Origin: Candidatus Heimdallarchaeota archaeon
Lineage (GTDB): Archaea > Asgardarchaeota > Heimdallarchaeia > Heimdallarchaeales > Kariarchaeaceae
DNA length: 14,680 nt
Direction of reading: 5' to 3'
Assembly (NCBI GenBank): GCA_015523565.1
Contig: WAKA01000041.1
Location: 1 to 14,680, forward strand
Position numbers and translations under genes: made by a program. Positions 1 to 14,680 of this stretch are shown here, piece after piece. Position 1 is the first letter of the stretch, and each line of letters begins with the position of its first letter. The notes beneath the pieces are model-generated. The model saw nothing but the letters and a program-made list of their open reading frames with translations, made no database searches and was not told the origin of the DNA.

Positions 1-160
1 AATATTCAAGCCCATTTTCTATTAGGAGAGAAAAAGCCAAGATGCGTCAGAAAAATTAGAATTAGGTTTCTTTTGTTGTTTAAGTTGCACTTTTGTTTAT
101 TTCAGAAAAGAAAAACAATCTTCGTTCTTAATGCTCAATCATGTATCAAAGTCCCTAGAT

Positions 161-167
161 TTTTATA
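161..167 (+). promoter_or_regulatory. Archaeal TATA box (probably leaderless transcript) for the 191..1057 gene
   Basis: TTTTATA lies 24-30 nt upstream of ATG191, the typical TATA-to-start spacing in archaea. Confidence 0.55.
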
Positions 168-190
168 GGCTTATGGGAAATTATTATTGA

Positions 191-1057
191 ATGAGCATTT
201 CTGACGAGGAATTTGAACGAAAACTTGAGGGATTGCTCCCCAAAGTTTTACATAGTTTAGGCTATATAATTACTCCAGAACAGATTGCAACGAGAGAAGA
301 TATTGAAAATTTAAGGAGACAAATGGATGAACGTTTTTTGAAAGTCTTTGAACGAATGGAAAAGAATGATGAGGAAATCAAGGGCATCAGGGAAGAGATG
401 AAGCAGCAGAATGAGGAGATCAAGAGCATCAGGGAAGAGATGAAGCAGCAGAATGAGGAGATCAAGAGCATCAGGGAAGAGATGAAGCAGCAGAATGAGG
501 AAATCAAGAGCATCAGGGAAGAGATGAAACAGCAGAATGAGGAGATCAAAAATCTCAGGGAAGAGATGAAGCATCAAAATGCGAGAATTGATAGGCTTAT
601 TGAGAGTATGAACAATGGGTTCTCCCTAGTCCACGATGAACTAGCAAAGGTTTCGAGCAAATATGGGAAAATGCGTGAAGAGGAAGCAAGAAAGCTATTG
701 GATGAGGTTTTAAAGCATTTTGGAGTCCCCTCTTATAAAGTCAAGAAAATGCAGGTAATAGACCAAGAAGGAATTGTATTTGCCAAAGGATATATTACAG
801 ATATTGATTTGTATTTGGAAAAGGACAATGAGGTTTGGGCCTTTGAATTCAAGGCAAACTGTGACAGATTTGACCTGTTTGGGTTCCATAAGATCTGTGA
901 ACTTCTTGAGAATGGATATGGCAAAAAAGTTACCAGAAAGATTCTTGCATGTTTCAGTTTTGAAGATGGCGTTGATATTGATGCGGACAGATTTGATATT
1001 GAAATTTGGAAACCAAAGGCAAGGGTTCCAGGTCTTGTTTTCCCAATCGATCTCTAA
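191..1057 (+). CDS. Coiled-coil protein with C-terminal PD-(D/E)XK nuclease-like domain (DUF3782/DUF1626-like archaeal family)
   Basis: 288-aa ORF with a short N-terminal head, an IATREDI motif (ATKxD-type beta-layer signature) and a long heptad-repeat coiled coil. It ends in a ...EEEAR...TDIDLYLEKDNEVWAFEFKAN segment matching E...D-x(n)-E-x-K of PD-(D/E)XK nucleases. Family assigned from motif recognition, not a database search. Confidence 0.8.
   Translation: MSISDEEFERKLEGLLPKVLHSLGYIITPEQIATREDIENLRRQMDERFLKVFERMEKNDEEIKGIREEMKQQNEEIKSIREEMKQQNEEIKSIREEMKQQNEEIKSIREEMKQQNEEIKNLREEMKHQNARIDRLIESMNNGFSLVHDELAKVSSKYGKMREEEARKLLDEVLKHFGVPSYKVKKMQVIDQEGIVFAKGYITDIDLYLEKDNEVWAFEFKANCDRFDLFGFHKICELLENGYGKKVTRKILACFSFEDGVDIDADRFDIEIWKPKARVPGLVFPIDL
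371..580 (+). repeat. In-frame tandem repeat, 5 x 42 bp (14 aa: EEIK(S/G/N)(I/L)REEMK(Q/H)QN)
   Basis: Units start at 371, 413, 455, 497 and 539, consensus GAGGAGATCAAGAGCATCAGGGAAGAGATGAAGCAGCAGAAT. Copies 2 and 3 are identical, copies 1 and 4 differ by 2 nt, and copy 5 is the most diverged. Confidence 0.97.
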
Positions 1058-1113
1058 CAATCATTTCATAAGAATTATTTTCCGACTTATTTGGGCTCAG
1101 TATTGATTATAAT

Positions 1114-2025
1114 TCAAGCATTATGATAATTTTGATCAGGAGATTGTTTATTTTTTGTGAGAAAATGCATGGGGTTTTCTATAAAAAACAACGAAAAGGT
1201 AATGATCAATCGAGGTTCCTTATTAAGAATTCGATGTGGCATCCCTTCCAAAGCAATTAAGGTAGAGTTGGGAAGTAATGCATCAAGTTTTACAGAATCT
1301 TCAAAGGGAATTACCTTATCATCAGTTCCTGCAAAAATTAGAGTAGGGGTATCAATGACGCTTGGATCAATGCAGTAAGAGGCAATTGTTTCCTCGATGA
1401 TTTTCTTTTGGATTTCAAGTGGTGCATTGGTCAATTGTGAAATAAATTTTTTATAAGTCGGGATTTCTTCTTCCGATGCAAAGTATGGCAAAGTCTTTTC
1501 AAATAACTTGGCGACTGCTCGAATCAATTTTTTGGGAGAAAGTTTGGTAAGACCTTTTAACCATAAAGGTACTGAGAATTTTATGGTTGGAGAAATAAGT
1601 ACCAAAGAATCGACATGCTCAGGGAAAAGTTTTGTAAATGTCAATGAGACAGCAGAAGAGAGAGAACTTGCAACAAGGTTTATCTTGAAATCAGAACCAA
1701 GAAACTGGGACAGAGCACAGTGAATATCTGTAGCAAGGTCTTGAATGGACCAAGACAAGTCTAGAGGGGAATCTGAATCCCCATGACCACGCAAATCAAT
1801 TGCAAACATGTTGAAATGATTTGAATAATGATCAAATGCATATTTATAGTCTTCACTGGACCCAAACCATCCATGAAGGAAAACCACATTTGGAAGGCTG
1901 GGATTGATGACTTCTGTTCGTTTCAAGGAGAGAAGAAAAAAGTCATTCTCTGCAATTTTCTCATCAACTTCGCAGTGAAAATCTGACCTATGATAAACTG
2001 GAACAAAGCTTTCTACAACTGACAT
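1114..2025 (-). CDS. Alpha/beta fold hydrolase (Abhydrolase_1-like)
   Basis: Motifs VFLHGW (oxyanion region), AIDLRGHGDS, nucleophile elbow LVASSLSS (S121), PTLIFAGTDDKVIP (D236) and GMPH (H264). A possible SD (GAGGT, 2037-2033) lies upstream. Confidence 0.9.
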   Translation of the reverse strand: MSVVESFVPVYHRSDFHCEVDEKIAENDFFLLSLKRTEVINPSLPNVVFLHGWFGSSEDYKYAFDHYSNHFNMFAIDLRGHGDSDSPLDLSWSIQDLATDIHCALSQFLGSDFKINLVASSLSSAVSLTFTKLFPEHVDSLVLISPTIKFSVPLWLKGLTKLSPKKLIRAVAKLFEKTLPYFASEEEIPTYKKFISQLTNAPLEIQKKIIEETIASYCIDPSVIDTPTLIFAGTDDKVIPFEDSVKLDALLPNSTLIALEGMPHRILNKEPRLIITFSLFFIENPMHFLTKNKQSPDQNYHNA

Positions 2026-2124
2026 ATAGATGACCTCGATGCATTGTGCGTCGATATAGATGCAATAGATCCCATCAAGGAAATACTTCCTTGAGAAAGT
2101 TCTATCTATTCTTTACTAGTGTCA

Positions 2125-2140
2125 TTTTATATTTATAAAA
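2125..2140. promoter_or_regulatory. Palindromic, possibly bidirectional TATA element between the divergent hydrolase and XPD genes
   Basis: TTTTATA-TT-TATAAAA has perfect 7-bp arms and is centred at about 2132, almost exactly midway between the start codons at 2025 (-) and 2238 (+). Confidence 0.45.
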
Positions 2141-2237
2141 CATTGCTAATAAGGAAAGAATAAATTTTCCATGACCTGATATTTCAGGCAATCAAGACTT
2201 TTTTAAGAGAGGGATAATTGGTTTTCTTGTAAAAGAA

Positions 2238-4178
2238 ATGAGCATGACCAAAGAAAAATGGAAGGAATTCTTCCCGTACAAGCCAAGACCTGCACAGGAA
2301 AAGATCATGCAACCTATGCAGGATGCAATATTTGATGGAAAACATTGCTTAGTGGAAGCTGCAAATGGAACTGGAAAAACAATTGCCGCATTGGCTGCGG
2401 CAATCCCTGTAGCCAAACAATTGGACAAGGTAATTGTATATCTTGCAAGAACACATTCCCAAATGGATAGAGTGATCGAGGAATTGCAGGAGATTAGTAA
2501 CCATTCAAAGGAATATGTTTCAGGGTTGACATTGAGAGGCAGAAACTCAATGTGCCTAAATGAATTGGTTTTGGAATATGCAAAAAGTGCCAGATCTGCC
2601 AGTGAGATGTGTACACAATTAAAATCCCTGAAAAAATGCCAATATTACAAAAACATGAGTGAGGATAAACGGATAAAACCAATAATGCATGAACTGAAAA
2701 AAATGCCTGCCACGGCAGAAGTGATTTTTGAAATGGCAGACGCCGCCCAGATCTGCCCTGCGGAAACTGCGAGAAAATTGCTTGCAAGTGTAGATGTAAT
2801 ATCCTGCAGTTATCTGTACATATTTGATCCAAAAATAAACGCATCATTTTTTGATCAGGTTGGGGTAGATTTGGATGATATCATACTCATTATTGATGAA
2901 TGCCATAACTTGCCAGACACTGCTATAGAAATTGGATCTGATGAGATCACATCATTTTCCTTCAGCAGGGCGATTCGTGAGGCAAGGGAAGAGGGAAGAA
3001 GGGATGCAATCCCATTTTTTGAAGCTTGCCAAGATTATTTTTTTGATCAGGCAAACAAATGGCAAATAGGACAGGAGTTGCAGGTTGACGGTTCAAAAAT
3101 CCTTGAAGAGCTTGAATTGAAATGTGACATTGAATTGGATGATGAGTTTTTTGAGGATCTCGTTTCTTTGGGGTTTAAGATTAGGACAAAGCTATTAAGG
3201 AAAGGCAAGGAACCAAGATCAAGTATAGGAAGAATTGGGGAGTTTTTTTCTGCATGGTATGATTCCATTGGCAGAGTAGATTATATCCATTCAATGGAGG
3301 TACGCACAATTGAAGGGAATAGGCAAAGCAGGTATGCAGTTTTAAGATTATCCAGTTTGAATCCAAGAAAAATCTTGGACCCAATACTTACAAAGGTTTT
3401 TTCATCAGTACACTTGACAGGTACTTTAGGAGACCCAGATGCTTACAAAATGTTAACAGGTCTTTCTGATCTTCCGACAGAGACAATGGTTCTTCCCTCA
3501 CCTTATAAGAGTTTCAATATCAAGGCATATTATACGGGAAAGCTTAGTACCCTATACAATCATCGTAATCCAGATACCTTCAAAAAAATGGTTGAATTAA
3601 TCATTGCAGTGGCTGACAACACTCCAGGAAATATTGGAGTGTTTGCTCCAAGTTATCAGATTGTAAAGGATCTTATGGACAACGGTCTCTCAAAATACAT
3701 GATAAAGCCAATATTCCAAGTACCCGCAGATTCAACGTCTGAAGAAAATGACAGAATCATTCGGAGGTTCAAGAAAGAGGCAAGCAAGGGGGGTGGAATT
3801 TTGCTGTCAGTACTTGGGGGAAGATCATCTGAAGGAACTGATTTTCCAGGGGACTTGATGAATTCTGTTGTTATCATTGGCATACCCTATGCTCCCCCAA
3901 ATCCGAGAATTAACGCAAAAATAGAATTTCTGGAGTCAAAATTTGAAGGCTGGGGGAGAACACTGGGGTATATTATTCCAGCGATAAACAAGGCAAGCCA
4001 AGCAGCAGGAAGGGCAGTAAGGTCTCTTGATGACAAGGCATTCATACTCTTTGTTGATTTTCGCTATGGTTCCTATAAGGTAAAAAGATTGCTTCCCCAT
4101 TGGATAAGACAGAATTTGAAAAAAATTGAGCCAAAGCCTGAGTTTATTAAAAAAGAAGTGATTGGATTTTTCAGGTAA
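2238..4178 (+). CDS. xpd: ATP-dependent 5'-3' DNA helicase, XPD/Rad3/DinG family with 4Fe-4S cluster
   Basis: Q motif FPYKPRPAQ, Walker A EAANGTGKT, motif Ia RTHSQ, four Fe-S cysteines (SMCLN, EMCTQ, KKCQYY, QICP), Walker B DECH, motif III TGTL, motif V SEGTDFPG, motif VI QAAGRAVR. The start may be ATG2238 or ATG2244. Confidence 0.95.
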   Translation: MSMTKEKWKEFFPYKPRPAQEKIMQPMQDAIFDGKHCLVEAANGTGKTIAALAAAIPVAKQLDKVIVYLARTHSQMDRVIEELQEISNHSKEYVSGLTLRGRNSMCLNELVLEYAKSARSASEMCTQLKSLKKCQYYKNMSEDKRIKPIMHELKKMPATAEVIFEMADAAQICPAETARKLLASVDVISCSYLYIFDPKINASFFDQVGVDLDDIILIIDECHNLPDTAIEIGSDEITSFSFSRAIREAREEGRRDAIPFFEACQDYFFDQANKWQIGQELQVDGSKILEELELKCDIELDDEFFEDLVSLGFKIRTKLLRKGKEPRSSIGRIGEFFSAWYDSIGRVDYIHSMEVRTIEGNRQSRYAVLRLSSLNPRKILDPILTKVFSSVHLTGTLGDPDAYKMLTGLSDLPTETMVLPSPYKSFNIKAYYTGKLSTLYNHRNPDTFKKMVELIIAVADNTPGNIGVFAPSYQIVKDLMDNGLSKYMIKPIFQVPADSTSEENDRIIRRFKKEASKGGGILLSVLGGRSSEGTDFPGDLMNSVVIIGIPYAPPNPRINAKIEFLESKFEGWGRTLGYIIPAINKASQAAGRAVRSLDDKAFILFVDFRYGSYKVKRLLPHWIRQNLKKIEPKPEFIKKEVIGFFR

Positions 4179-4198
4179 CCCAAAAATTTTTTTTAGGG
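4179..4198 (+). terminator. Possible archaeal oligo-U terminator after xpd
   Basis: CCCAAAAATTTTTTTTAGGG immediately follows the stop codon: an 8-T run (4187-4194) inside a weak inverted repeat. Confidence 0.4.
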
Positions 4199-4217
4199 GA
4201 AAAGAAATTATTGTATA

Positions 4218-4805
4218 TTGACCAATGATAAGCGGAGAAATGAAATCCTCCAACTGATCAACAGGTTTTTCAAGGATTTTGATGAGTTATTCAATTTTGC
4301 GGATCAATTGGATGAGCCTGACAAAATAATAAAGCTGATCAAAAATGCGACAGATGACAAGTTAGCTATTCAGCTAGTCTTTAGGTTGGCATATCTGGAT
4401 GAGTCACATTTGGCCAAATTAATAATGGAAACAGATGATGAAATAATCAAACAATTCAGTATATTTATTTTGAAGGATGAGAATGCACTCAAAAGAGTCG
4501 CTGAAGCTGATACGTCAATTTGGACTGCATTGGGTGCAGTATCAAAAATTTCAGATCAAAATTTGCTTTTTGAATTGGCAAACAATACCAACGCTTTTTC
4601 AAGCGTCAGATGGGAAGCATTAAGGCGAATAGATAAAACGGAGCTTCTAGTAAAATTGCTGGACAATCCAATTGATGATATTTGGGTTAAAGCAATTCTC
4701 ACAAAAATCAAAGACATGGATACATTGCTAATGCTACGATTGACTTTAGCAGATCGTTATCAATCTGAATTGATCAAAAAAATAAAAAGAATCAGTGAAA
4801 ATTAG
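4218..4805 (+). CDS. Hypothetical alpha-helical (HEAT-like) repeat protein
   Basis: 195-aa ORF with TTG start and about 26-aa periodic units such as DQNLLFELANNTNAFSSVRWEALRRI and DENALKRVAEADTSIWTALGAVSKIS. Its 3' end overlaps the convergent regulator gene by 14 bp. Confidence 0.7.
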   Translation: MTNDKRRNEILQLINRFFKDFDELFNFADQLDEPDKIIKLIKNATDDKLAIQLVFRLAYLDESHLAKLIMETDDEIIKQFSIFILKDENALKRVAEADTSIWTALGAVSKISDQNLLFELANNTNAFSSVRWEALRRIDKTELLVKLLDNPIDDIWVKAILTKIKDMDTLLMLRLTLADRYQSELIKKIKRISEN

Positions 4806-6339
4806 TGACGGAAGAATAATATTGCTTTTCATTATAAACTCTCTTTTTGAGCAGGATGTCCAATAGATTTTCAATTTCGTCATAATCAGGATCAATATAT
4901 TCTTTGTTTGCAATCTTTTTCTTTTTGATCAACTGGTTTTTTGTCAAAATATTCAACATGTTTCGGACAGTCTTTCTGTTTATGCCTGTTTCTTCAGATA
5001 TTGTGCTGATATTCCATTCTATGTTTTCATAGGAAACTAAGAATTCCAAAAATGGAATCGCATGTTTTGATCTAAGATTGAGTTCAACCATTTTAAGACC
5101 ATAATCGAATTGATCAGCATACTCAGATGCAATATAAACGATATAACGTCCAACTTTCTTCTTCTCGACCCATCCATACTCTTCCAATATTTGAAGATGC
5201 CATAAAAGATTACCCATACCCATACCCACAGCTTTCTTGATTTCACGGAGGTGTGCACCAGAAGCTTCCAGATATTCTAAATAATCTATAATTGCCTTTC
5301 GTGCAGGATTTACAAGAAGTTGACCTTCAGATATCTGTCGGTTTTGGACATGATAGGCAGAACCGATAATGAAAATTCCAAATTTGAGGATTTGATCGAA
5401 TACCCATTGAAGAAATGAAATAATTTTTCTGAAGAACAGGGCAATTAAGGCAACAAAAACCAAAAGCATTGGAAGCAGGGAATTGCTAAAATTTGAATCA
5501 TTTGTATTTGGAAATTGCGCAGAGTTTGAGTTTGTGGAATTTGAAGTAATCATTGTGTTGTTTGATACGGCTGTAGAAATGTTATTTGAGGATATTGAAT
5601 TTTCAATTTTAATGTTAAGGAACATTTTTACTGTTTTCTGTATCAGGATGTCAATTTTGGAAAGCAGATCGGGCAGGGCATTGATATGAAGATTTCCATG
5701 ACCATTTTCCACAGGGGAAACTAAGTCAAACATAAATGCAATTGAATAAAGCAGAGAGCTATTTCTTTCCAAAATAATTGGTTCACCACCAGAGATTTCT
5801 TTTTGAACCTCCGATTCATTGACAGAAGAAATAGTTCCGAGAATGTTTGTATTTTGTAATTGTGTGACAATTCCCACTTTGCCCAAATAGGATGCAGATA
5901 TATCTGATTCATTCAATCTAAGAGTGAATGTCCATTCAGTGTTTTCCTCCCCCAGTTCTTTCAGATAATTTCCCACACCAAGTTTTGTAATAAAGTTGTT
6001 GCTGAATTCGTCAATACGGGAAGAGAATAGGACAATGGATTTTAGATCGTCAGTATTTATGAATTGTTCAATTTCATCTTTCAAAGCACTTTCCAAGTTT
6101 TCTGATGAAGTTTCAACAAAAATTATGTCAAATGAGTTCAATGAAGGTGGCGATTTTGAGTCACTTGGGATTGGAGTTACAGATACTTGATCATATTTAC
6201 TTAACAAGTCAAGAAATGTACTTTTACCCTCTTCATTTGAATAGATGACACCAATATTGATTTGGTGGCTTGTTGCCAATCCAAACATGGGATTCAGAAG
6301 CATCAACAATGATAAGAAAATGAAAGGTAACTGTTTCAT
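4792..6339 (-). CDS. Membrane-anchored transcriptional regulator: signal peptide, extracellular domain, Ser/Asn stalk, TM helix, tandem winged-HTH (COG3398/ArsR-like)
   Basis: Start reassigned from 6489 to ATG6339 (MKQLPFIFLSLLMLLNPMFGLA is a signal peptide, with a TATA about 45 nt upstream), giving 515 aa. TM LLPMLLVFVALIALFF followed by RK at about 5478-5425. wHTH1 is NPARKAIIDYL...AHLREIKKAVGMGMGNLLWHLQILEEYGWVEKKKVGRY. wHTH2 is WNISTISEETGINRKTVRNMLNILTKNQLIKKK. Confidence 0.85.
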   Translation of the reverse strand: MKQLPFIFLSLLMLLNPMFGLATSHQINIGVIYSNEEGKSTFLDLLSKYDQVSVTPIPSDSKSPPSLNSFDIIFVETSSENLESALKDEIEQFINTDDLKSIVLFSSRIDEFSNNFITKLGVGNYLKELGEENTEWTFTLRLNESDISASYLGKVGIVTQLQNTNILGTISSVNESEVQKEISGGEPIILERNSSLLYSIAFMFDLVSPVENGHGNLHINALPDLLSKIDILIQKTVKMFLNIKIENSISSNNISTAVSNNTMITSNSTNSNSAQFPNTNDSNFSNSLLPMLLVFVALIALFFRKIISFLQWVFDQILKFGIFIIGSAYHVQNRQISEGQLLVNPARKAIIDYLEYLEASGAHLREIKKAVGMGMGNLLWHLQILEEYGWVEKKKVGRYIVYIASEYADQFDYGLKMVELNLRSKHAIPFLEFLVSYENIEWNISTISEETGINRKTVRNMLNILTKNQLIKKKKIANKEYIDPDYDEIENLLDILLKKRVYNEKQYYSSVTNFH

Positions 6340-6379
6340 GCCACATCTGTCATCTTTTTGTTTAATTACAATTACAATG

Positions 6380-6389
6380 TTATATATAA
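6380..6389 (-). promoter_or_regulatory. TATA box for the membrane-anchored regulator gene
   Basis: TTATATATAA (self-palindromic) lies 41-50 nt upstream of ATG6339. Confidence 0.5.
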
Positions 6390-6443
6390 TAAGACCATTG
6401 GAACAGTTTTGCCCACATAAGAAAAAGGAAAAAAAAGTTACTA

Positions 6444-6463
6444 AAAAATAATGAGTTATTTTT
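6444..6463. promoter_or_regulatory. Candidate operator palindrome AAAAATAA-tgag-TTATTTTT
   Basis: Perfect 8-bp inverted repeat with a 4-nt spacer, centred at 6453/6454, about 68-69 bp from each of the two divergent TATA boxes. Confidence 0.45.
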
Positions 6464-6510
6464 CGCACGAACAACGGAATGATTTTCACTATGAGTCGAC
6501 AATGTGATGT

Positions 6511-6525
6511 AAAAAGTTAAATATA
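6511..6525 (+). promoter_or_regulatory. BRE + TATA promoter of the S8 protease gene (probably leaderless)
   Basis: Purine-rich AAAAAG directly followed by TTAAATATA, 21-29 nt upstream of ATG6546. Confidence 0.65.
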
Positions 6526-6545
6526 TCTATGTTTTAATTGTTACA

Positions 6546-9500
6546 ATGAACACCAAATCACTAAGAAATGGTAGTTTTATTAACAGGACAGGAGTGTTCA
6601 TTTTACTTTTTTCAATACTAGTGATTTCATCATTCACTCCTGCCTCTGTTATAGCGAATCAAAGGATCAGTTCACAAAGCATTCAACAAAATGTAGCAAC
6701 TGACCTTACTCAGAATCAAAATCAAGAATTGCAAACCACAAAAGGAAGCGCATTTGATTTGATTCCTGAGGACAGCAGATATGATCTGCTCAGAAAACAT
6801 TTGGAAAAAGAAGGTGCACCAATAAATGCAAAGGTTATTTCTCCATTCCTTCTGAATCTTCAAGACAGGGATCTAAATGTTCAGAAGGATGGAACCATGA
6901 AATTGGTTGTTTCATTGGACAATAGAAACAAATACGCAGACGTATATGGGTTGGCTTCCCGTTTTGGCTTTAGTGTGGAAGAAGAAATTCCCAGATTGAA
7001 TGCATTTGTTTTCAAAGGGAAAATTGACGCATTCAACAATTTCCTTCTAAGCAAGGGGTCTCGTTTAGGAGTAGAATACGTTGAACCTGTTGTCTATTAT
7101 CAGTTAGACAATACTGAAAAAAGCCATCCACCTCATCTTATGGGTACACCAAATGACCCCATGTGGAATGATCAATACGGTCCACAAATCATCAGGGCAG
7201 ATAAGGCATGGGGACAGTTCCAAACACCACCTTCGGAACCAGTCATTGTTGCAGTTATTGATACAGGTGTGGATTACAACCATCCAGATCTTCAAAATAT
7301 CTATTTGCCTGGCGGATATGATTGGTACAATGATGATAATGATCCAATGGATGATCATGACCATGGAACCCATGTTGCAGGAATTATTGCTGCAGAGATC
7401 AACAACAGCATAGGTATTGCTGGTGTTGCTGGTTTGGGTTCAGGTTATGTGAAAGTCATGGCAGAAAAATTCCTAAGCTCATGGGGAAGTGGATCAGACA
7501 CTGATGCCGCAAATGCCATCATTCATGCAGTAGATTTTGGAGCAGATATTTTAAGCAATTCATGGGGTGGCGGTCCTTCTGATCTTATTGCAGAAGCGAT
7601 GGCATATGCAGAAGATAATGGAGTAATTGTCATAGCTGCGGCGGGCAATGGTTTTGGTCAAGATGCAGATTTCAACTATCCTGCGGCATTGCCATCAGTT
7701 ATTTCTGTTTCCTCAACAGATGAAAATGACCAATTGTCATACTTTAGCTCATATGGCTATACTGTTGATGTCGCAGCCCCTGGTTCAAGTATTCTTTCAA
7801 CTGTCAGGAATGGAGACTATGAGTTTTTCTCAGGAACATCCATGGCCACACCACACGTATCAGCTACAGCTGCATTGATGTTGCTTAGACAACCTGACTT
7901 GACACCTTTTGAAGTTAGAACCCTCTTGCACGACACTTCTGTTGACCTTGGCGATGAGGGATTTGATGTGAAATTCGGTTATGGTCGTATCGATGTCCTT
8001 AATGCAACAACAGCCGCGGTAAGACCCAACACAGATTTGAGGGCAACAATTTATGTGCCTCAACAACCCACAATTACAAATTCAATAATCAGAGTTACAA
8101 TTGGCCTGTTCAACTTTGGTACATCCACCCAAGATTTGAGTTACAGCATTCTACAAAATGGAAAAGTTGTTGCTTCAGGAACAGAATCAAATATGGCGGG
8201 TGGAACATATCTTAAATATGAACATGAAATGATTGTTGTCAATCCACAGGATGTTGTTCTGCAAGCAATAATCACCCCTGTTGCAGGTGAAACAAACATT
8301 GCAAACAACAATGCCACTCAAGTCCTCTCTTTTGGCAAGCAAACATATTCCATGAAACCAATGCAGTTTGAGTGGGATGATGCAAGGAATGGTGGAAGAA
8401 ATCTCGGATTGGTTGGGGATGATATAGCAGTTGATGTCCCATTGCCTTTCGCCTTTCCGTTCTTTGGAGATTTCAATTTTGACACTGCATTTGCCAGCAC
8501 AAATGGGTACATCTCATTTGTAGACCCAAGTGGATGGAGATATTATCCCGCCATATTTCCAGATGACTATAATCCATTTGTAATAGCACCATTCTGGACA
8601 GACATGATCATGTTTGACTTTGGCGATGGAGGAAACACGACAAATGATGTTCCAGAATTTTGGGTCAAAGAAAGAAATGACTCTGTGATTTTGCAATGGA
8701 CAAATGCAAAGCTTTACTTTGATCCTACTGCAAGAATTACATTCCAAGCGGTATTGTATAAAGATGGAGACATTCAATTCAATTACCTAAATGCAGAAAC
8801 GGAATTCGTTGCAATTGGTGTAAACAAGGGTCTTAGGTCAATGGACTATACCACATATTGGTCACCTTTGGATGGTCCGATTTCTCTGACAAACATGTCA
8901 TTATTGTTTACATCAAAGGAAATGAGTGTAGCCAATGAACTTGGTGTTTCTCTCTATACCTCATTGGATATGACACTTCCAAACAGCAATAATACAATTG
9001 AATTTGGCATTCTCAATTATGGCACAGCAGATGCTACAAATGTGGCATATGATATGGCAATCAATGGAACAAGTGTGATGAATGGAAGTACAGATGTAGA
9101 TGCAGGATTTGGTGAGCCGTTTTCGTATGAGTGGATGCCTACAGTAGAAGGTCATTATGTTTTCAACATTTCTGTTGCCCCATACTTGAATGAAACGGAT
9201 TTACAGAACAACTTCATTGTTTTCGAAGTTGATGTGGTTTCTTCTAACCTCAATGTACCATTTGGAACTCCGATGTATTACCAATTTGATTCAGAGCTTT
9301 TTGGAGGGCTAGAAGAGTGGCCTTTACTAGAAATGCACGTTGAAGAAACTGAAGATCCATTATTTGCAGATCTATGGCTGACATACATAGACCTGTTTAC
9401 TGGAGAAGTATTCATTGAATCCTCATTCCGCTTCAATGTTTTGACCTTTGAACTTGAAGGTGGATGGGGTCAAATGCCATTCATCCTACCAACATTTGCA

Positions 9501-11096
9501 GATGTAGGATACAGCAATGAGTTTGGTGAAATTGTTTCAGACACAACATACGATTTCCAAGGAACTTCATTAACAGGTTGGCTTCTAGAAGATAGTTGGG
9601 GAACCTCTGTAGTTTATGACCAAGAAACAGGTGCAATGCTATCTTACAGGGTACCGTTCTATAATGGAAATGGAACATCTCCAGAAACCGTTGGAGTCAC
9701 CATTATTGCGGCACATGGAGTTCTTGCTACACCATCTGTCAATCAATTCTTAGATGTTTTTGCAATAGATGGACCAGTCAATGCAGAAACACAGATCAAT
9801 GCATTTGTCATGAACACAGGAAGCAGTACAGTTTCTGGTACAACATTGCAATTGAAAGTTGATGGGCAAGATGTTTTCAGTATGGATATTTCTTCATTGG
9901 ACCCTACAAGCTATACCGTGGTATCGGTGAATTATACTGTATCTGAAGGAGTTCATCTTGCAGAAGGATCATTGTCAGCAGCCACTTCAGAAACATATCT
10001 TGAAGACAATGCAGATACAGATACCTTCATTGGAATGGAATTCATTGCTGTTTTCCAAGATGACTATCCCTTCTTCTCATATATGCTTGAAGATGTCATT
10101 ACTTATGGACTAGGAATGGGTGTTAAGTATTTCGGATCTAACGATATTGGAAACGTCAATATAAGTGCATATAAACGAGTGATTATTGCGTCATCCCAAA
10201 CCGCTTCATTCCAAAATAAAGTTTCATCCAATACCCAATGGTTTGAAAACTACGCTGAAAATGGAGGAATTCTTGAAATCCATGCAGCTTCAGATCAAGG
10301 ATATGGAGCAGGACCAGGTTACACATCTCTTCCAGGAGGTGTGAGTGTTGTCAATGCACAAGATGGATATAACCAGATCTCAATTATGGATCCAACTTCA
10401 GACCTGTTTACAACACCCAATTTGATTTCTGATGCCATGTTAAGCAATTGGTATTGGTCTGCATATGGATATTTGTCAATTAATGACCCATTGACAAAAG
10501 TTTATGCAAAAACCACAGACGTCAGTAGTGTTGCACCAGTGATTGCTGCTAAGGCACAAGGAGATGGTTTTATCATATATACCACAATGCCTGTAGAAGC
10601 ATGGTGGGGCAGTTATAGTTTCTTGGAAAATCTCGTCCAATTTGTGCCTAATGATGTCCCAACATCAGGCAATCCACCATCAATTCAAGGAAATGAAAAT
10701 GTGATCATGTATTATGGTCAGTGGGAGACACTCATATACGTAATTTCGAGTGACTTCTATGAAACATATTCAATTACAATTGATGGAGACAAGACAGTCT
10801 ATAACTGGAATGAAAAAGAGAAAACCATCGTTATTTCCACAGAAAATTGGACTGTCGGAGAGCACTCTGTGAAGATTGATGCAACAGATCTTCTGGGTCA
10901 GACTACATCAATGGAAACAACTGTTAAGGTTCTGCCACAGGGTGGAGTAACAGTCACTAAAACAGTAAGTGCCACAACGACACCCACAAATACAAGTGTG
11001 TCAAGTAGTGAAAGCAAAAGTCCATTTAACATGTGGGCAGTTGTATTTGGTCTTGTCTTTATAGCAATCATGCCAATCATCAGAAAGAAGAAATAG
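6546..11096 (+). CDS. Secreted, cell-surface-anchored multidomain S8 (thermitase-like subtilisin) serine protease
   Basis: Signal peptide, I9-like propeptide, then catalytic D239 (VAVIDTG), H273 (HGTHVAG), oxyanion N368 (AAAGN) and S432 (GTSMATPH). These are followed by CARDB-like repeats (N-x-G...E...NN), a NIDO-like domain (LPFAFPFFG...STNGYISF...IAPFWTD), a GATase-like domain, an Ig-like domain, a Thr/Ser linker and a C-terminal SPF-TM-RKKK tail. Confidence 0.95.
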   Translation: MNTKSLRNGSFINRTGVFILLFSILVISSFTPASVIANQRISSQSIQQNVATDLTQNQNQELQTTKGSAFDLIPEDSRYDLLRKHLEKEGAPINAKVISPFLLNLQDRDLNVQKDGTMKLVVSLDNRNKYADVYGLASRFGFSVEEEIPRLNAFVFKGKIDAFNNFLLSKGSRLGVEYVEPVVYYQLDNTEKSHPPHLMGTPNDPMWNDQYGPQIIRADKAWGQFQTPPSEPVIVAVIDTGVDYNHPDLQNIYLPGGYDWYNDDNDPMDDHDHGTHVAGIIAAEINNSIGIAGVAGLGSGYVKVMAEKFLSSWGSGSDTDAANAIIHAVDFGADILSNSWGGGPSDLIAEAMAYAEDNGVIVIAAAGNGFGQDADFNYPAALPSVISVSSTDENDQLSYFSSYGYTVDVAAPGSSILSTVRNGDYEFFSGTSMATPHVSATAALMLLRQPDLTPFEVRTLLHDTSVDLGDEGFDVKFGYGRIDVLNATTAAVRPNTDLRATIYVPQQPTITNSIIRVTIGLFNFGTSTQDLSYSILQNGKVVASGTESNMAGGTYLKYEHEMIVVNPQDVVLQAIITPVAGETNIANNNATQVLSFGKQTYSMKPMQFEWDDARNGGRNLGLVGDDIAVDVPLPFAFPFFGDFNFDTAFASTNGYISFVDPSGWRYYPAIFPDDYNPFVIAPFWTDMIMFDFGDGGNTTNDVPEFWVKERNDSVILQWTNAKLYFDPTARITFQAVLYKDGDIQFNYLNAETEFVAIGVNKGLRSMDYTTYWSPLDGPISLTNMSLLFTSKEMSVANELGVSLYTSLDMTLPNSNNTIEFGILNYGTADATNVAYDMAINGTSVMNGSTDVDAGFGEPFSYEWMPTVEGHYVFNISVAPYLNETDLQNNFIVFEVDVVSSNLNVPFGTPMYYQFDSELFGGLEEWPLLEMHVEETEDPLFADLWLTYIDLFTGEVFIESSFRFNVLTFELEGGWGQMPFILPTFADVGYSNEFGEIVSDTTYDFQGTSLTGWLLEDSWGTSVVYDQETGAMLSYRVPFYNGNGTSPETVGVTIIAAHGVLATPSVNQFLDVFAIDGPVNAETQINAFVMNTGSSTVSGTTLQLKVDGQDVFSMDISSLDPTSYTVVSVNYTVSEGVHLAEGSLSAATSETYLEDNADTDTFIGMEFIAVFQDDYPFFSYMLEDVITYGLGMGVKYFGSNDIGNVNISAYKRVIIASSQTASFQNKVSSNTQWFENYAENGGILEIHAASDQGYGAGPGYTSLPGGVSVVNAQDGYNQISIMDPTSDLFTTPNLISDAMLSNWYWSAYGYLSINDPLTKVYAKTTDVSSVAPVIAAKAQGDGFIIYTTMPVEAWWGSYSFLENLVQFVPNDVPTSGNPPSIQGNENVIMYYGQWETLIYVISSDFYETYSITIDGDKTVYNWNEKEKTIVISTENWTVGEHSVKIDATDLLGQTTSMETTVKVLPQGGVTVTKTVSATTTPTNTSVSSSESKSPFNMWAVVFGLVFIAIMPIIRKKK

Positions 11097-11135
11097 ACAA
11101 AACCCTAAATAATATGGAATTCATTTTTTAACTGT

Positions 11136-11741
11136 TTGAATTATACGGAATTTATTCAAAATCTCAAGACATACATCTCAAACAACCATTTTATACATTC
11201 ACAGAAACCAATAGCATCAGTATTAGTTCCCATTTTTGAAAAAAATGATGAGCCATGGATTTTATTGACAAAAAGGTCTACAAAACTGGAGAAACATTCA
11301 GGACAGGTTTCATTTCCAGGGGGAAAAGTTGACATCACGGATAGGGACGAGATAGATACTGCATTGAGGGAAACAAAGGAGGAACTTAATATTTCAAAAG
11401 GACAAATTGAAATCATAGGGAGGTGGCATGATTTCTGGACACCATATTATAGAGATGTTGCCACAATAATCGGGGAAGTGAAAAATTTAGATGGCATGAC
11501 CCCTTCAGAATCAGAAATTGAAAAGATAATCAGCTTGCCCGTATCTTCTTTTGCAGATCCAAGCATTCATAGGGTTGAGGAAAGATATCATAATGGCATA
11601 ACCTATACAGTCCATTATTTTGAAATTAACGGGGACGTGATTTGGGGAGCCACTGGTGGTGTGATTTTCTTTCTTTTAAGAGACTTAGGGATAATAAAAT
11701 ATGGAAAACAATATTCAGGTCGTAGAAGTGGTCTTACTTAG
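11136..11741 (+). CDS. Nudix hydrolase, CoA pyrophosphatase subfamily (NudL/PCD1/NUDT7-like)
   Basis: ASVLVP, the NuCoA motif LLTKRSTKLEKHSGQVSFPGG, the Nudix box GKVDITDRDEIDTALRETKEELNI, and C-terminal IWGATG. TTG start, with a TATA-like TAAATAATA at 11106-11114. Confidence 0.9.
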   Translation: MNYTEFIQNLKTYISNNHFIHSQKPIASVLVPIFEKNDEPWILLTKRSTKLEKHSGQVSFPGGKVDITDRDEIDTALRETKEELNISKGQIEIIGRWHDFWTPYYRDVATIIGEVKNLDGMTPSESEIEKIISLPVSSFADPSIHRVEERYHNGITYTVHYFEINGDVIWGATGGVIFFLLRDLGIIKYGKQYSGRRSGLT

Positions 11742-12120
11742 TCTTTTCATCCCGAATTTCCTTGAGAACCTTAAGACCATCCATTGCGAGAGGAAAGCCG
11801 ATAAACATTGCCAAATGTAAGAAAAGCTCTGCCAATTGATCATATCCATAACCTTGATTTAGCGCTGCAATCAGGTGTGATTTAAGTTGCGGTTTTAGTC
11901 CTAGGCAGGTTAGAGAAGTAATTGCTACAAGTTCTTTTTCCTTAAGAGACAATCCTTTTCTTGGATATACCGACCCATAGGGGATTTCGATGACGAATTT
12001 TGCAAAAGTTGGATCCAAATTTGTGAGGGCAGATTTTATCTTTTCCCAGTTATGCTTATACAATTCATATCCAATTGTATCTGCTTCAGTTTCCCTGTTG
12101 TCTGGAATGGGCGAATTCAC
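11734..12120 (-). CDS. Carboxymuconolactone decarboxylase (CMD/AhpD-like, PcaC-type) family protein
   Basis: YGSVYPRKGLSLKEKELVAITSL...PQLKSHLIAALNQG...ELFLHLAMFIGFP is the typical CMD pattern. There is no CxxC. GTG start, with an 8-bp convergent overlap with the Nudix gene. Confidence 0.9.
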   Translation of the reverse strand: MNSPIPDNRETEADTIGYELYKHNWEKIKSALTNLDPTFAKFVIEIPYGSVYPRKGLSLKEKELVAITSLTCLGLKPQLKSHLIAALNQGYGYDQLAELFLHLAMFIGFPLAMDGLKVLKEIRDEKTK

Positions 12121-12224
12121 ACGATTTTATCATCCATTGTCCATTTATCAATTCCGTTACATATCAATTTTCATCTAAACATTCACTGGCTATGGTGACT
12201 TATTTTGGAGAACTTATTTGTAGA

Positions 12225-12231
12225 TTTATAA
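12225..12231 (+). promoter_or_regulatory. TATA box for the DinB-family gene
   Basis: TTTATAA lies 24-30 nt upstream of ATG12255, supporting that start over 12075. Confidence 0.55.
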
Positions 12232-12254
12232 GCATTGCATTGAAATATGATTCA

Positions 12255-12746
12255 ATGATTGAGCCCATTGAAAAAAACAAGCTCCATAATAAACTTGTGA
12301 CAACTGGAACAGCCCTTCATTCCTTGTTTTGGGGGAAAAAACCGCAACAGGTGAATATTAAGTCGTCAGACCCAAACATAAAATATTCTGCCTTGGAATA
12401 TTTAATGATCTTGAGATATGCATCCGATTTATTTACTGGAAGGGTGGAGAGGATGTTAAAGGATGAAACAGTTCCAAGCACCCACGATTTTGACCTAGAC
12501 AAGTTTTTGGCAATGGAAGACATTGATGATCAAAGCTTGAAAGCAAATATTGAAGAATTCATGGAATCTCGTGCAAAATTGCTTAGACTTCTGAACCCAC
12601 TTGCAGATGAGGATTGGGATAAATACAAAATCAACCATGAGAAATATGGAGAGCTCACATTAAGGCAACTGTTAACTCTCTTGGCAAATTATGAAGAAGA
12701 ATGGGTAAATAACATTCGTACAATTCTCAAGGAACACAATATGTAA
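12255..12746 (+). CDS. DinB/YfiT-like (DinB_2) four-helix-bundle protein lacking the metal-binding histidines
   Basis: The pattern KYSALEYLMIL...RVERMLKDETVP...FMESRAKLLRLLNPLADEDW...HEKYGELTLRQLL matches DinB_2. The start is moved to ATG12255 (163 aa) because the longer ORF would overlap the divergent CMD gene and its promoter. Confidence 0.8.
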   Translation: MIEPIEKNKLHNKLVTTGTALHSLFWGKKPQQVNIKSSDPNIKYSALEYLMILRYASDLFTGRVERMLKDETVPSTHDFDLDKFLAMEDIDDQSLKANIEEFMESRAKLLRLLNPLADEDWDKYKINHEKYGELTLRQLLTLLANYEEEWVNNIRTILKEHNM

Positions 12747-12748
12747 CC

Positions 12749-14197
12749 CTAATCAACATACTGCTCATAGAAGATTATATTAGATGCAATTGTGAGCAAA
12801 TCTTCAGGAATCCAGTTATTGAGTTCTAGCCATAATGTTCCATTGGCAAGATCAGAGAGCAATTCCTCTATAGTTTCACTTTTTGTCATGACTGAAGGGG
12901 GATCAACACCTGTGCGTCTGTCTGGGGCTCCGAAAATATGGCTTATCTCATGTTGGAACAAGTTATCTGTCCATGCATTGGTAAGCCTGACGCCACTTGC
13001 CTTTAAACTGCCACCTGCATTTGCGGCGATGTTGAATCCACCATTGACAGTACCAATGACCATTCCATAGTTTGACATCGTTTTATTTGTATTGATGAGC
13101 AAAATGTCGGCACCCATGTTATTGCGAGACCTGCCTTGGATGTGCCACCATGTGTTTTGAGGAAGATTGAGCATGGAACCCACCTTTGATTTTGCAAAAT
13201 CAAAAAAATCGGGAAGTGAAGTGGATCCAGAATAATCGGTTTCAATGGTTAAAGCAACTTTGAAGGTCATATTGAACCATTTCTCAAAGTAAATGTTGAC
13301 AATTTTAAGGATTTCAGAAACTGGAGGAAAAGTATCTTCCCAATGATCATTCATTACAGTAACTAAAATGACCTTTTTGCGATTAAGAAGCATGAAATAA
13401 AATGTCAGTTCAGATTGTGAGGAATTGAATACCAGAGTGACATTTATCATACTTGACAAATCTGCAAGATTTAGTGATATTTCGCTATTATTGATCTTGT
13501 AAGTCCTTTTGTTTATGAATAAAGTTCCATTGAAACCTGAAGAGGCATTTATGTTGAAAAGATAAGAAGACGCCGCATTGACTTGGGTTTCAAGCAATCC
13601 GTAATTAAAGGAATTATTAGTAACGACTGTAACTTTTCCATGCATAGCTGAAGAGATGGATCCAGAGGCATTATGAAGTATCCAAGTGGAGGAGGAAAAC
13701 ATGTTGACTGCAGAATACTTTTCGACATGAATAATCTGGTCAAGAATCATTGTTTTTTCAAAAGTCTGGTTGTCAACAGAAAAGGTATAGTTTAAGTTGT
13801 GAAGTTTATATGCTCCATCAGAAAGAGCAAAAAACATGTCAGAGGTAGTTTGCCAAAAGCCAGGCAAGAAATCGAATTGCAGTTTGTAATAACCGGGAGA
13901 ATAAGATTGATTGAGGAAAATATATTGATGGGAAATTCTTTCATTCTTTGAAGCTTCCAACTTAACGCCAACAAGGGTTGCATTGTAAACAGAGACATTT
14001 AGGGTGACAATCATAGTGAGATTCTCCCCTCTGAAGAGAGTATCATTAAAATTGACGTTTTCTATTTCCAATGTCTTTTCTTTTGGAAATTGGGGAGCTT
14101 GCTTTGGGATACGGTAAAGATACAAGGCAACCCCCAGAATTGAAACAAGAATGATTAAGGAAATTGAAACGACAGACATTAACTGTTTTGAGTTCAT
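12749..14197 (-). CDS. Membrane-anchored zinc metalloprotease, metzincin clan (reprolysin/M12-like), with N-terminal beta-rich extracellular domains
   Basis: N-terminal signal-anchor VVSISLIILVSILGVALYLY, zinc motif HEISHIFGAPD (HExxHxxGxxD, aa 416-426, nt 12952-12920), Met-turn PSVM (M437) and 17 N-x-S/T sequons. A TATA-like TTTAAG lies at 14226-14221. Confidence 0.8.
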   Translation of the reverse strand: MNSKQLMSVVSISLIILVSILGVALYLYRIPKQAPQFPKEKTLEIENVNFNDTLFRGENLTMIVTLNVSVYNATLVGVKLEASKNERISHQYIFLNQSYSPGYYKLQFDFLPGFWQTTSDMFFALSDGAYKLHNLNYTFSVDNQTFEKTMILDQIIHVEKYSAVNMFSSSTWILHNASGSISSAMHGKVTVVTNNSFNYGLLETQVNAASSYLFNINASSGFNGTLFINKRTYKINNSEISLNLADLSSMINVTLVFNSSQSELTFYFMLLNRKKVILVTVMNDHWEDTFPPVSEILKIVNIYFEKWFNMTFKVALTIETDYSGSTSLPDFFDFAKSKVGSMLNLPQNTWWHIQGRSRNNMGADILLINTNKTMSNYGMVIGTVNGGFNIAANAGGSLKASGVRLTNAWTDNLFQHEISHIFGAPDRRTGVDPPSVMTKSETIEELLSDLANGTLWLELNNWIPEDLLTIASNIIFYEQYVD

Positions 14198-14238
14198 TCA
14201 ACGGATATTGGAATTATTCACTTAAATTATTAGTCGCA

Positions 14239-14598
14239 TTAGTTTGAAATTTCGTCAGGATCAATTTCAATCAATTTCTTGAAGACGTCAACAAATGCAG
14301 GTTTTGGATAGGCGCCGACAAAGCGACCGACAGGTTTTCCATTTTTGAAAGCCCAGAATGTTGGAATACTAGTTGCACCATATTTCATTGCCGTTTGTGG
14401 ATTCTCATCAACATTCAGTTTGCCAACCCATACTTTCCCCTTGTATTCCTCAGCCAGTTCTTCCAATATTGGAGCAACCATCCTGCAAGGTCCACACCAT
14501 GCCGCCCAAAAGTCAACCAAAATAATGGGTGCTTTTTGGATCATTTCATCAAAGTTCTCATCAGTGAGTTTTATTGGTTTTCCTGTTTCTTCAAGCAT
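14239..14598 (-). CDS. trxA: Thioredoxin
   Basis: LVDFWAAWCGPCRMVAPILEELA, KLNVDEN and cis-Pro motif SIPT. Confidence 0.97.
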   Translation of the reverse strand: MLEETGKPIKLTDENFDEMIQKAPIILVDFWAAWCGPCRMVAPILEELAEEYKGKVWVGKLNVDENPQTAMKYGATSIPTFWAFKNGKPVGRFVGAYPKPAFVDVFKKLIEIDPDEISN

Positions 14599-14604
14599 AA
14601 TCCT

Positions 14605-14610
14605 TCACCT
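14605..14610 (-). promoter_or_regulatory. Archaeal-type Shine-Dalgarno site of thioredoxin
   Basis: Minus strand reads AGGTGA-AGGATT-ATG. A TATA-like TTATTAATAA lies at 14649-14658. Confidence 0.6.
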
Positions 14611-14680
14611 TCGTTTGAAGATGTGCTATTATGTAGCAACAACCTTACTTATTAATAATTGTTATAGTACAGTATATAAT

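Follow-up and report, generated by a model that had tools for sequence, protein, structure and literature searches.

A predicted transmembrane transcription regulator of Heimdallarchaeia and a candidate operator that it may share with cell-surface genes

We have analysed a 14,680-nucleotide stretch from a Candidatus Heimdallarchaeota archaeon (assembly GCA_015523565.1, contig WAKA01000041.1, positions 1 to 14,680; the window), which carries, head to head, a gene for a membrane-bound transcription regulator and a gene for a surface protease of the S8 family. We propose that the regulator is an autoregulated, ArnR/ToxR-like one-component transmembrane regulator of heimdallarchaeial cell-surface genes that reads a predicted box, and we put the probability of this at about 0.7. 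Judging from sequence comparison, what merits attention here is a heimdallarchaeial transmembrane regulator, so far uncharacterised, whose operator and cell-surface regulon are both predicted; the protease is probably a neighbour and not part of the circuit. The regulator has the following parts.

4792..6339, minus strand: transmembrane transcription regulator, 515 amino acids (aa), in the order signal peptide, glutamine amidotransferase (GATase)-like ectodomain, stalk, transmembrane (TM) helix, amphipathic helix and two winged helix-turn-helix (wHTH) domains
6274..6339, minus strand: signal peptide-like hydrophobic N-terminus, residues 1-22 (hydropathy; a similar stretch is found in most homologues)
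5608..6267, minus strand: ectodomain, residues 25-244, with a class I glutamine amidotransferase-like (GATase1/ThuA/GIFT) fold in the AlphaFold2 model
5482..5586, minus strand: disordered stalk rich in Ser, Thr and Asn, residues 252-286, with five N-glycosylation sequons
5431..5481, minus strand: TM helix, residues 287-303, followed by RK
5353..5430, minus strand: amphipathic, then hydrophobic helix, residues 304-329, conserved, consensus WLxxK...GAxY
5110..5328, minus strand: wHTH domain 1 (HVO_0163_N / ArsR-like), the most conserved part
4828..5103, minus strand: wHTH domain 2 (TrmB-like)

The gene starts with an ATG at 6339 and stops at 4792 (minus strand); a longer form with a GTG start at 6489, offered by the open reading frame (ORF) finder, gains no support from the alignment of homologues. 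The N-terminal hydrophobic segment covers residues 4-22. In an AlphaFold2 model built from 43 homologues, the ectodomain has a mean predicted local distance difference test score (pLDDT) of 85, and the stalk falls below 50 at residues 253-284. Pfam finds HTH_HVO_0163_N at residues 346-409 (E 7.6e-7) and TrmB at residues 441-481 (E 2.1e-6). The HVO_0163 family PF24266, which structural neighbours of the regulator carry, scores 29.5 bits, slightly below its curated cut-off of 31. Hydropathy, the model and Pfam thus bear out the original prediction, made from the letters alone, of a receptor-like type-I transmembrane regulator in an Asgard archaeon, with signal peptide, ectodomain, stalk, one TM helix and two wHTH domains. 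That prediction overlooked the conserved helix between the TM and wHTH parts (residues 304-329). Its amphipathic portion, residues 304-317, has a moment of 0.66, and from its sequence the helix is a candidate signal-transmitting or dimerising element.

Two elements of the regulator promoter lie in the 206-bp gap between the divergent genes (6340-6545).

6400..6415, minus strand: candidate operator TGGGCA-N4-TGTTCC, ending 7 nt upstream of the regulator TATA
6385..6392, minus strand: regulator TATA-like box (from the sequence; same spacing in homologues)

When five intergenic regions were aligned, the box was the strongly conserved element, even in a relative (G002) that lacks the S8 gene, and its spacing from the regulator TATA is similar in homologues. 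Exact copies number four in this genome (G000) and five, three and three in the same-genus relatives G001, G002 and G003, all labelled Ca. Heimdallarchaeota. The reversed pattern occurs 0, 1, 0 and 0 times, and base composition predicts about 0.2 exact boxes per genome. Nearly all exact copies point at a downstream gene and are followed by an AT-rich box; those of this genome precede the regulator, the C107 gene and the C135 operon described below, and coaBC. A scoring matrix trained on other genomes only and then scanned over this one ranked the coaBC, regulator, C135 and C107 promoters highest (23-26 bits) and also picked out the C147 ORF listed below, while the reversed-matrix control reached at most 19.1 bits, with its top ten all in coding sequence. 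The box or its right half stands ahead of the regulator or a regulator operon at 15 loci, and 12 genomes that encode the regulator have the box or a half-box ahead of a C107-family gene. The original prediction had the regulator acting on the intergenic DNA. A conserved candidate operator does lie there, but it belongs to the regulator promoter and survives loss of the S8 gene.

The other predicted targets lie elsewhere in the genome.

G000:C107:487-1761: surface protein, 424 aa, acidic and His-rich (L110), homologue of the co-operonic surface protein
G000:C135:3096-10888: operon (L103) for an 837-aa prenyltransferase-barrel surface protein, a 1370-aa barrel-7TM_transglut-ATP-grasp_ST fusion and a 398-aa transglutaminase
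G000:C147, about 8137-8259: small ORF, 40 aa, behind a box

A C107-family gene or a C135-type operon is co-operonic with the regulator in nine other homologues. In seven homologues from different parts of the tree, the gene just upstream of the regulator and on the same strand encodes a surface protein of 370-390 aa, the usual neighbour; the C135-type operon adjoins the regulator in two homologues, and ends with it in G006 and L195. In the ancestor, a box was probably followed by the surface-protein gene and then by the regulator gene. The C107 family (A7) is present in 45 of 81 genomes of the class, and 8 of its 30 members match Pfam NCU-G1, the family of lysosomal GLMP (best E 8.9e-7), so that by sequence it is a possible Asgard relative of GLMP. 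Counterparts of the C147 ORF follow boxes in G001, G003 and G014. The box-following ORFs of these four genomes are 39-55 aa long, charged and helical (L105, L106 and L107 are among the loci), the G000 and G001 copies are clearly homologous, and a feedback peptide is a candidate role. The perfect box 157-174 bp ahead of coaBC falls at the end of a long gene that runs in the same direction (G000:C143:5696, L104; G001:C7, L098), and a small RNA or an untranslated-region element may be concealed in the long leader. A 187-aa membrane protein (G000:C158:3620-4183, minus strand) has a variant box, TGGGCG-N4-TGTTCC, with a TATA at the usual spacing, and is by sequence a possible further target.

Based on these data, we propose that a dimer of the regulator would bind the pseudo-palindrome (T)GG(G/A)CA-N4-TGTTCC through its wHTH domains, just upstream of the transcription factor B (TFB) recognition element (BRE) and TATA box. 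Bound there, it would probably activate its own gene (positive autoregulation), the acidic/His-rich, C-terminally anchored surface protein of about 400 aa, the prenyltransferase-barrel / 7TM-ATP-grasp / transglutaminase operon and the helical ORF of 40-55 aa, and perhaps coaBC. The outside signal would travel via the TM helix and the amphipathic helix, and the regulator would remain in the membrane. Within this genus, the genes of the unit would have separated, each keeping a box, and the S8 gene would have come to lie opposite. We favour activation because the box is just upstream of BRE/TATA, as are the ArnR boxes at -43 to -84 (PMC6396743).

The box might instead be read by another factor, either a soluble two-wHTH paralogue (on C214 here) or an alternative TFB that sees it as an extended BRE, the regulator being only a member of the regulon. 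The right half-site does abut the BRE position, some genomes carry a degenerate left half-site, and the soluble paralogue exists. However, a C107-family gene is kept in the f2 genomes (two are 93-95% complete), where the soluble paralogue was found but no regulator, and a box or half-box precedes the C107-family gene in 0 of 12. TGTTCC with a TATA occurs at only 12 of 2092 upstream regions, and we rejected it as a general core-promoter element. The box also changes where the regulator diverges: the divergent f5 regulators have different boxes of their own ahead of themselves and of neighbouring surface genes. We therefore consider a different reader improbable. In f5 (L050-L060), each of the two regulator paralogues has a box of its own (GCGGAA-N4-ATTCG-like or A-run-GTGTTCC), found ahead of itself and of secreted proteins next to it; close by, the opposite strand carries a pilin-like gene (RRAVSPILAA).

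Several points weigh against an autoregulated surface-gene regulator. The case is built on phylogenetic footprinting, and kinship confounds the co-occurrence of box and regulator. The f4 regulators (G014, G016) have no box in their short available flanks, though G014 has boxes elsewhere. A box that abuts the BRE could repress instead of activate, and some box hits are not surface genes, such as coaBC at its distance of 157-174 bp. Finally, the GATase-like fold identifies no ligand.

The best structural matches of the ectodomain (VIA) are a GH42 domain (Z 16.2), a ThuA-like protein (15.9) and Agd3 (15.8), followed lower down by OST-A chain G (14.1), IFT52 (13.3) and the fourth domain (618-874) of site-1 protease, S1P (10.5). 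It shares the fold of active class I glutamine amidotransferases but is not one of them, because the catalytic cysteine is absent; the ectodomain has no cysteine at all, and only 4 of 33 close homologues have one. Pfam searches of this domain alone and of the late domain of the S8 protease alone gave no match, and the Atlas feature search gave weak leads only. Accessory domains from enzymes that handle glycans are frequent among the top matches, which suggests sensing of a sugar or small ligand; in our scheme, this non-catalytic ectodomain would most likely sense a small ligand, a glycan or the envelope state. A complex prediction pairing it with the C107-family surface protein, as a ToxS-like partner, scored 0.00 and carries no weight either way. 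One 807-aa homologue (P0018) has an NHL beta-propeller ahead of the GATase-like ectodomain.

The gene facing the regulator is described by the following features.

6546..11096, plus strand: membrane-anchored S8 protease, 1516 aa, with prodomain, thermitase-like S8 domain, CARDB, NIDO, CARDBs, GATase-like domain, stalk and TM helix
7260..7841, plus strand: intact catalytic triad codons D239 (7260), H273 (7362) and S432 (7839)
10038..10670, plus strand: GATase1/GIFT-like domain, residues 1165-1375 (AlphaFold2 predicted template modelling score, pTM, 0.88)
6517..6524, plus strand: protease TATA-like box (from the sequence)
6459..6491, plus strand: protease-side element of two TTTT(C)CRCAC/TTTTCACTA-like copies, the first of which sits at -75 to -77 relative to the S8 start

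With its S8 domain (Peptidase_S8, residues 233-480, E 8.7e-61, besides CARDB and NIDO) and its Asp/His/Ser triad, the protein is an S8 subtilase, anchored by a C-terminal TM helix at residues 1494-1512. The divergent arrangement, the triad and the 206-bp gap are all as first described. The closest solved relatives of the catalytic domain are Ak.1 protease and thermitase, in agreement with the original prediction of a thermitase-like enzyme that is not an S1P (MBTPS1) orthologue. The late GATase-like domain matches 3rht (Z 15.4), IFT52 (14.2), OST-A chain G (14.2) and S1P 621-875 (12.6; VIA). Because this domain sits at 1165-1375, the order catalytic domain, Ig-like domain, GATase-like domain, TM is loosely that of S1P. 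However, S1P is outside the 60 best catalytic-domain matches, generic GATase folds outscore it for the late domain, no MBTPS1 Pfam domain is matched, and the protease has extra NIDO and CARDB domains; thus only the GATase-like fold is shared. Nor is there a sign of close kinship between the GATase-like domains of the regulator and the protease, since their profile comparison gave a probability of 3.3%. A 993-aa S8 protein that is not beside a regulator (G000:C29:4783-7764, minus strand; L108) has an MBTPS1_4th/GIFT-like domain and a C-terminal TM helix, an architecture closer to S1P; its catalytic domain has its nearest matches in archaeal and Bacillus subtilisins, and the contig also carries a rhomboid gene.

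The original prediction coupled the two genes, and named conserved divergent synteny in relatives as its test. We could read the 5' flank of 27 regulator homologues; six more end too close to a contig edge. The same S8 gene faces the regulator in 4 of the 27 (this genome, G001, DRR684994 and JALUJQ), which form one clade (support 100/97). Where the contigs reach, the surrounding block hydrolase-XPD-regulator / S8-NUDIX-CMD-M12-thioredoxin is also conserved. In G002 (82% complete), the sister of this clade, the block lies on one contig, NUDIX faces the regulator, and no S8 orthologue was found. In G003 (93% complete), a full-length S8 orthologue (35% identity) lies about 66 kb from the regulator, opposite the M12 gene. 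The window's own M12 gene (12749-14197, minus strand) encodes a membrane-anchored, reprolysin-like metallopeptidase of 482 aa. With 13 S8-like genes in this genome and one origin on the tree, the juxtaposition is no more than regional synteny gives, and coupling of regulator and protease is not supported. From the gene comparisons, one rearrangement in a sub-clade of the genus probably brought S8 opposite the regulator and at the same time parted the regulator from the partner with which it had shared an ancestral operon.

The protease could still be a recently recruited target, the shared box acting also on its promoter, by distal activation or repression, without cleavage of the regulator. 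The box is pseudo-palindromic and lies in the shared gap, S8 is a surface protein like the other targets, and the pair has persisted in four species. But the distance from box to protease start varies (130, 181 and 209 bp, with 107 bp in DRR684994 if counted from the gene call), while that from box to regulator TATA is fixed. The protease has its own conserved element, at a fixed distance in G000, G001 and JALUJQ, not seen in the S8-less G002 and found at no other promoter of this genome. No half-site precedes any of the 12 S8 genes checked here, and no box precedes the G003 orthologue (best 2.9 bits). A TGTTCC ahead of that G003 gene was rejected; it lies in the loop of a hairpin that separates TATA from the ribosome-binding motif, and has no left half-site. 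We find it unlikely that S8 is a target.

Cleavage is less likely still. The idea was that cutting of the stalk by S8 would be followed by release of the wHTH part through an intramembrane protease, the regulator in turn controlling protease expression. Both proteins are on the same membrane face, the stalk is exposed and disordered, the S1P-like domain order fits, and the pair is retained at 50-57% protease identity. Yet the stalk has no conserved sequence across homologues and carries five sequons, an RxxL-type motif is found in 2 of 43 homologues and is absent from this regulator (cf. ATF6/SREBP), the catalytic domain is thermitase-like, the box is tied to the regulator promoter, and conserved linkage or co-occurrence with a site-1 protease, which regulated intramembrane proteolysis would call for, is lacking. 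Of the expected intramembrane proteases, M50 and rhomboid are encoded in the genome, but their presence shows nothing because the same searches match all 14 control genomes; archaeal SPP/A22 (PF06550) was not found in this 90%-complete genome. We regard this as very unlikely. A broader ATF6-like envelope-stress circuit, in which the ectodomain would respond to surface glycan or to the state of the envelope, shedding would be the work of a membrane-anchored S8 (the one described here or the C29 protein, which is unlinked), M50 or rhomboid would cut in or after the TM helix, and the freed tandem wHTH part would activate a surface-building regulon including the distant GLMP/NCU-G1 relative, seems to us improbable too.

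ToxR and CadC have an N-terminal OmpR-type wHTH and a C-terminal outside domain. Like them and TcpP, the regulator is a single-pass membrane protein with its sensor outside, its wHTH inside and no kinase. However, it is outside the ToxR/CadC family, being type I with the opposite order: a signal peptide, a GATase-like ectodomain, an extra amphipathic helix and a C-terminal tandem wHTH of HVO_0163_N/ArsR/TrmB-like type. Its cytoplasmic part resembles archaeal HVO_0163-like (PF24266) tandem-wHTH proteins, which we take to be COG3398. Its Atlas neighbours include Promethearchaeota clusters of about 420 aa with the same HTH families, and TM-bearing relatives of that size are common in another Asgard family. 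The regulator is a transmembrane transcription regulator by the definition that asks for a DNA-binding domain and one or more TM segments, a common class, as archaeal genomes carry about four on average (1,384 in 367 species; Demey et al. 2023, PMC10269533). Protease-activated members are already known in prokaryotes, such as CadC (PMC11484849) and, as cited in PMC10269533, TcpP. ArnR and ArnR1 of Sulfolobus acidocaldarius are membrane-bound one-component activators that bind inverted-repeat boxes ahead of the BRE/TATA in promoters of surface-structure genes (PMC6396743); our regulator shares this plan, with binding and activation predicted. It is not of the ArnR family, since ArnR has an N-terminal HTH, a cytoplasmic HAMP and sensor and two C-terminal TM helices, and requires two TCGAC-N5-GTCGA boxes (PMC6396743), whereas the regulator has an ectodomain, one TM helix, two wHTH domains and mostly one box of another sequence. 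Our literature search returned nothing on HVO_0163-like function, operator or GATase-like ectodomain, on COG3398, on an Asgard site-1 protease or GLMP, or on the regulator family, its box or its targets.

Elsewhere in the window (191-1057), a 288-aa protein has near-perfect 14-residue coiled-coil repeats ahead of a DUF3782-type domain.

In sum, we know of almost no regulator-operator-target sets for Asgard archaea; in this case, a single soluble fragment would suffice to test the protein, the 16-bp site and the named targets. The S1P/ATF6 analogy, attractive but weak, falls away, as the protease link rests on one rearrangement. The predicted targets point to envelope building, through an uncharacterised ATP-grasp/transglutaminase system and a surface family weakly similar to lysosomal GLMP.

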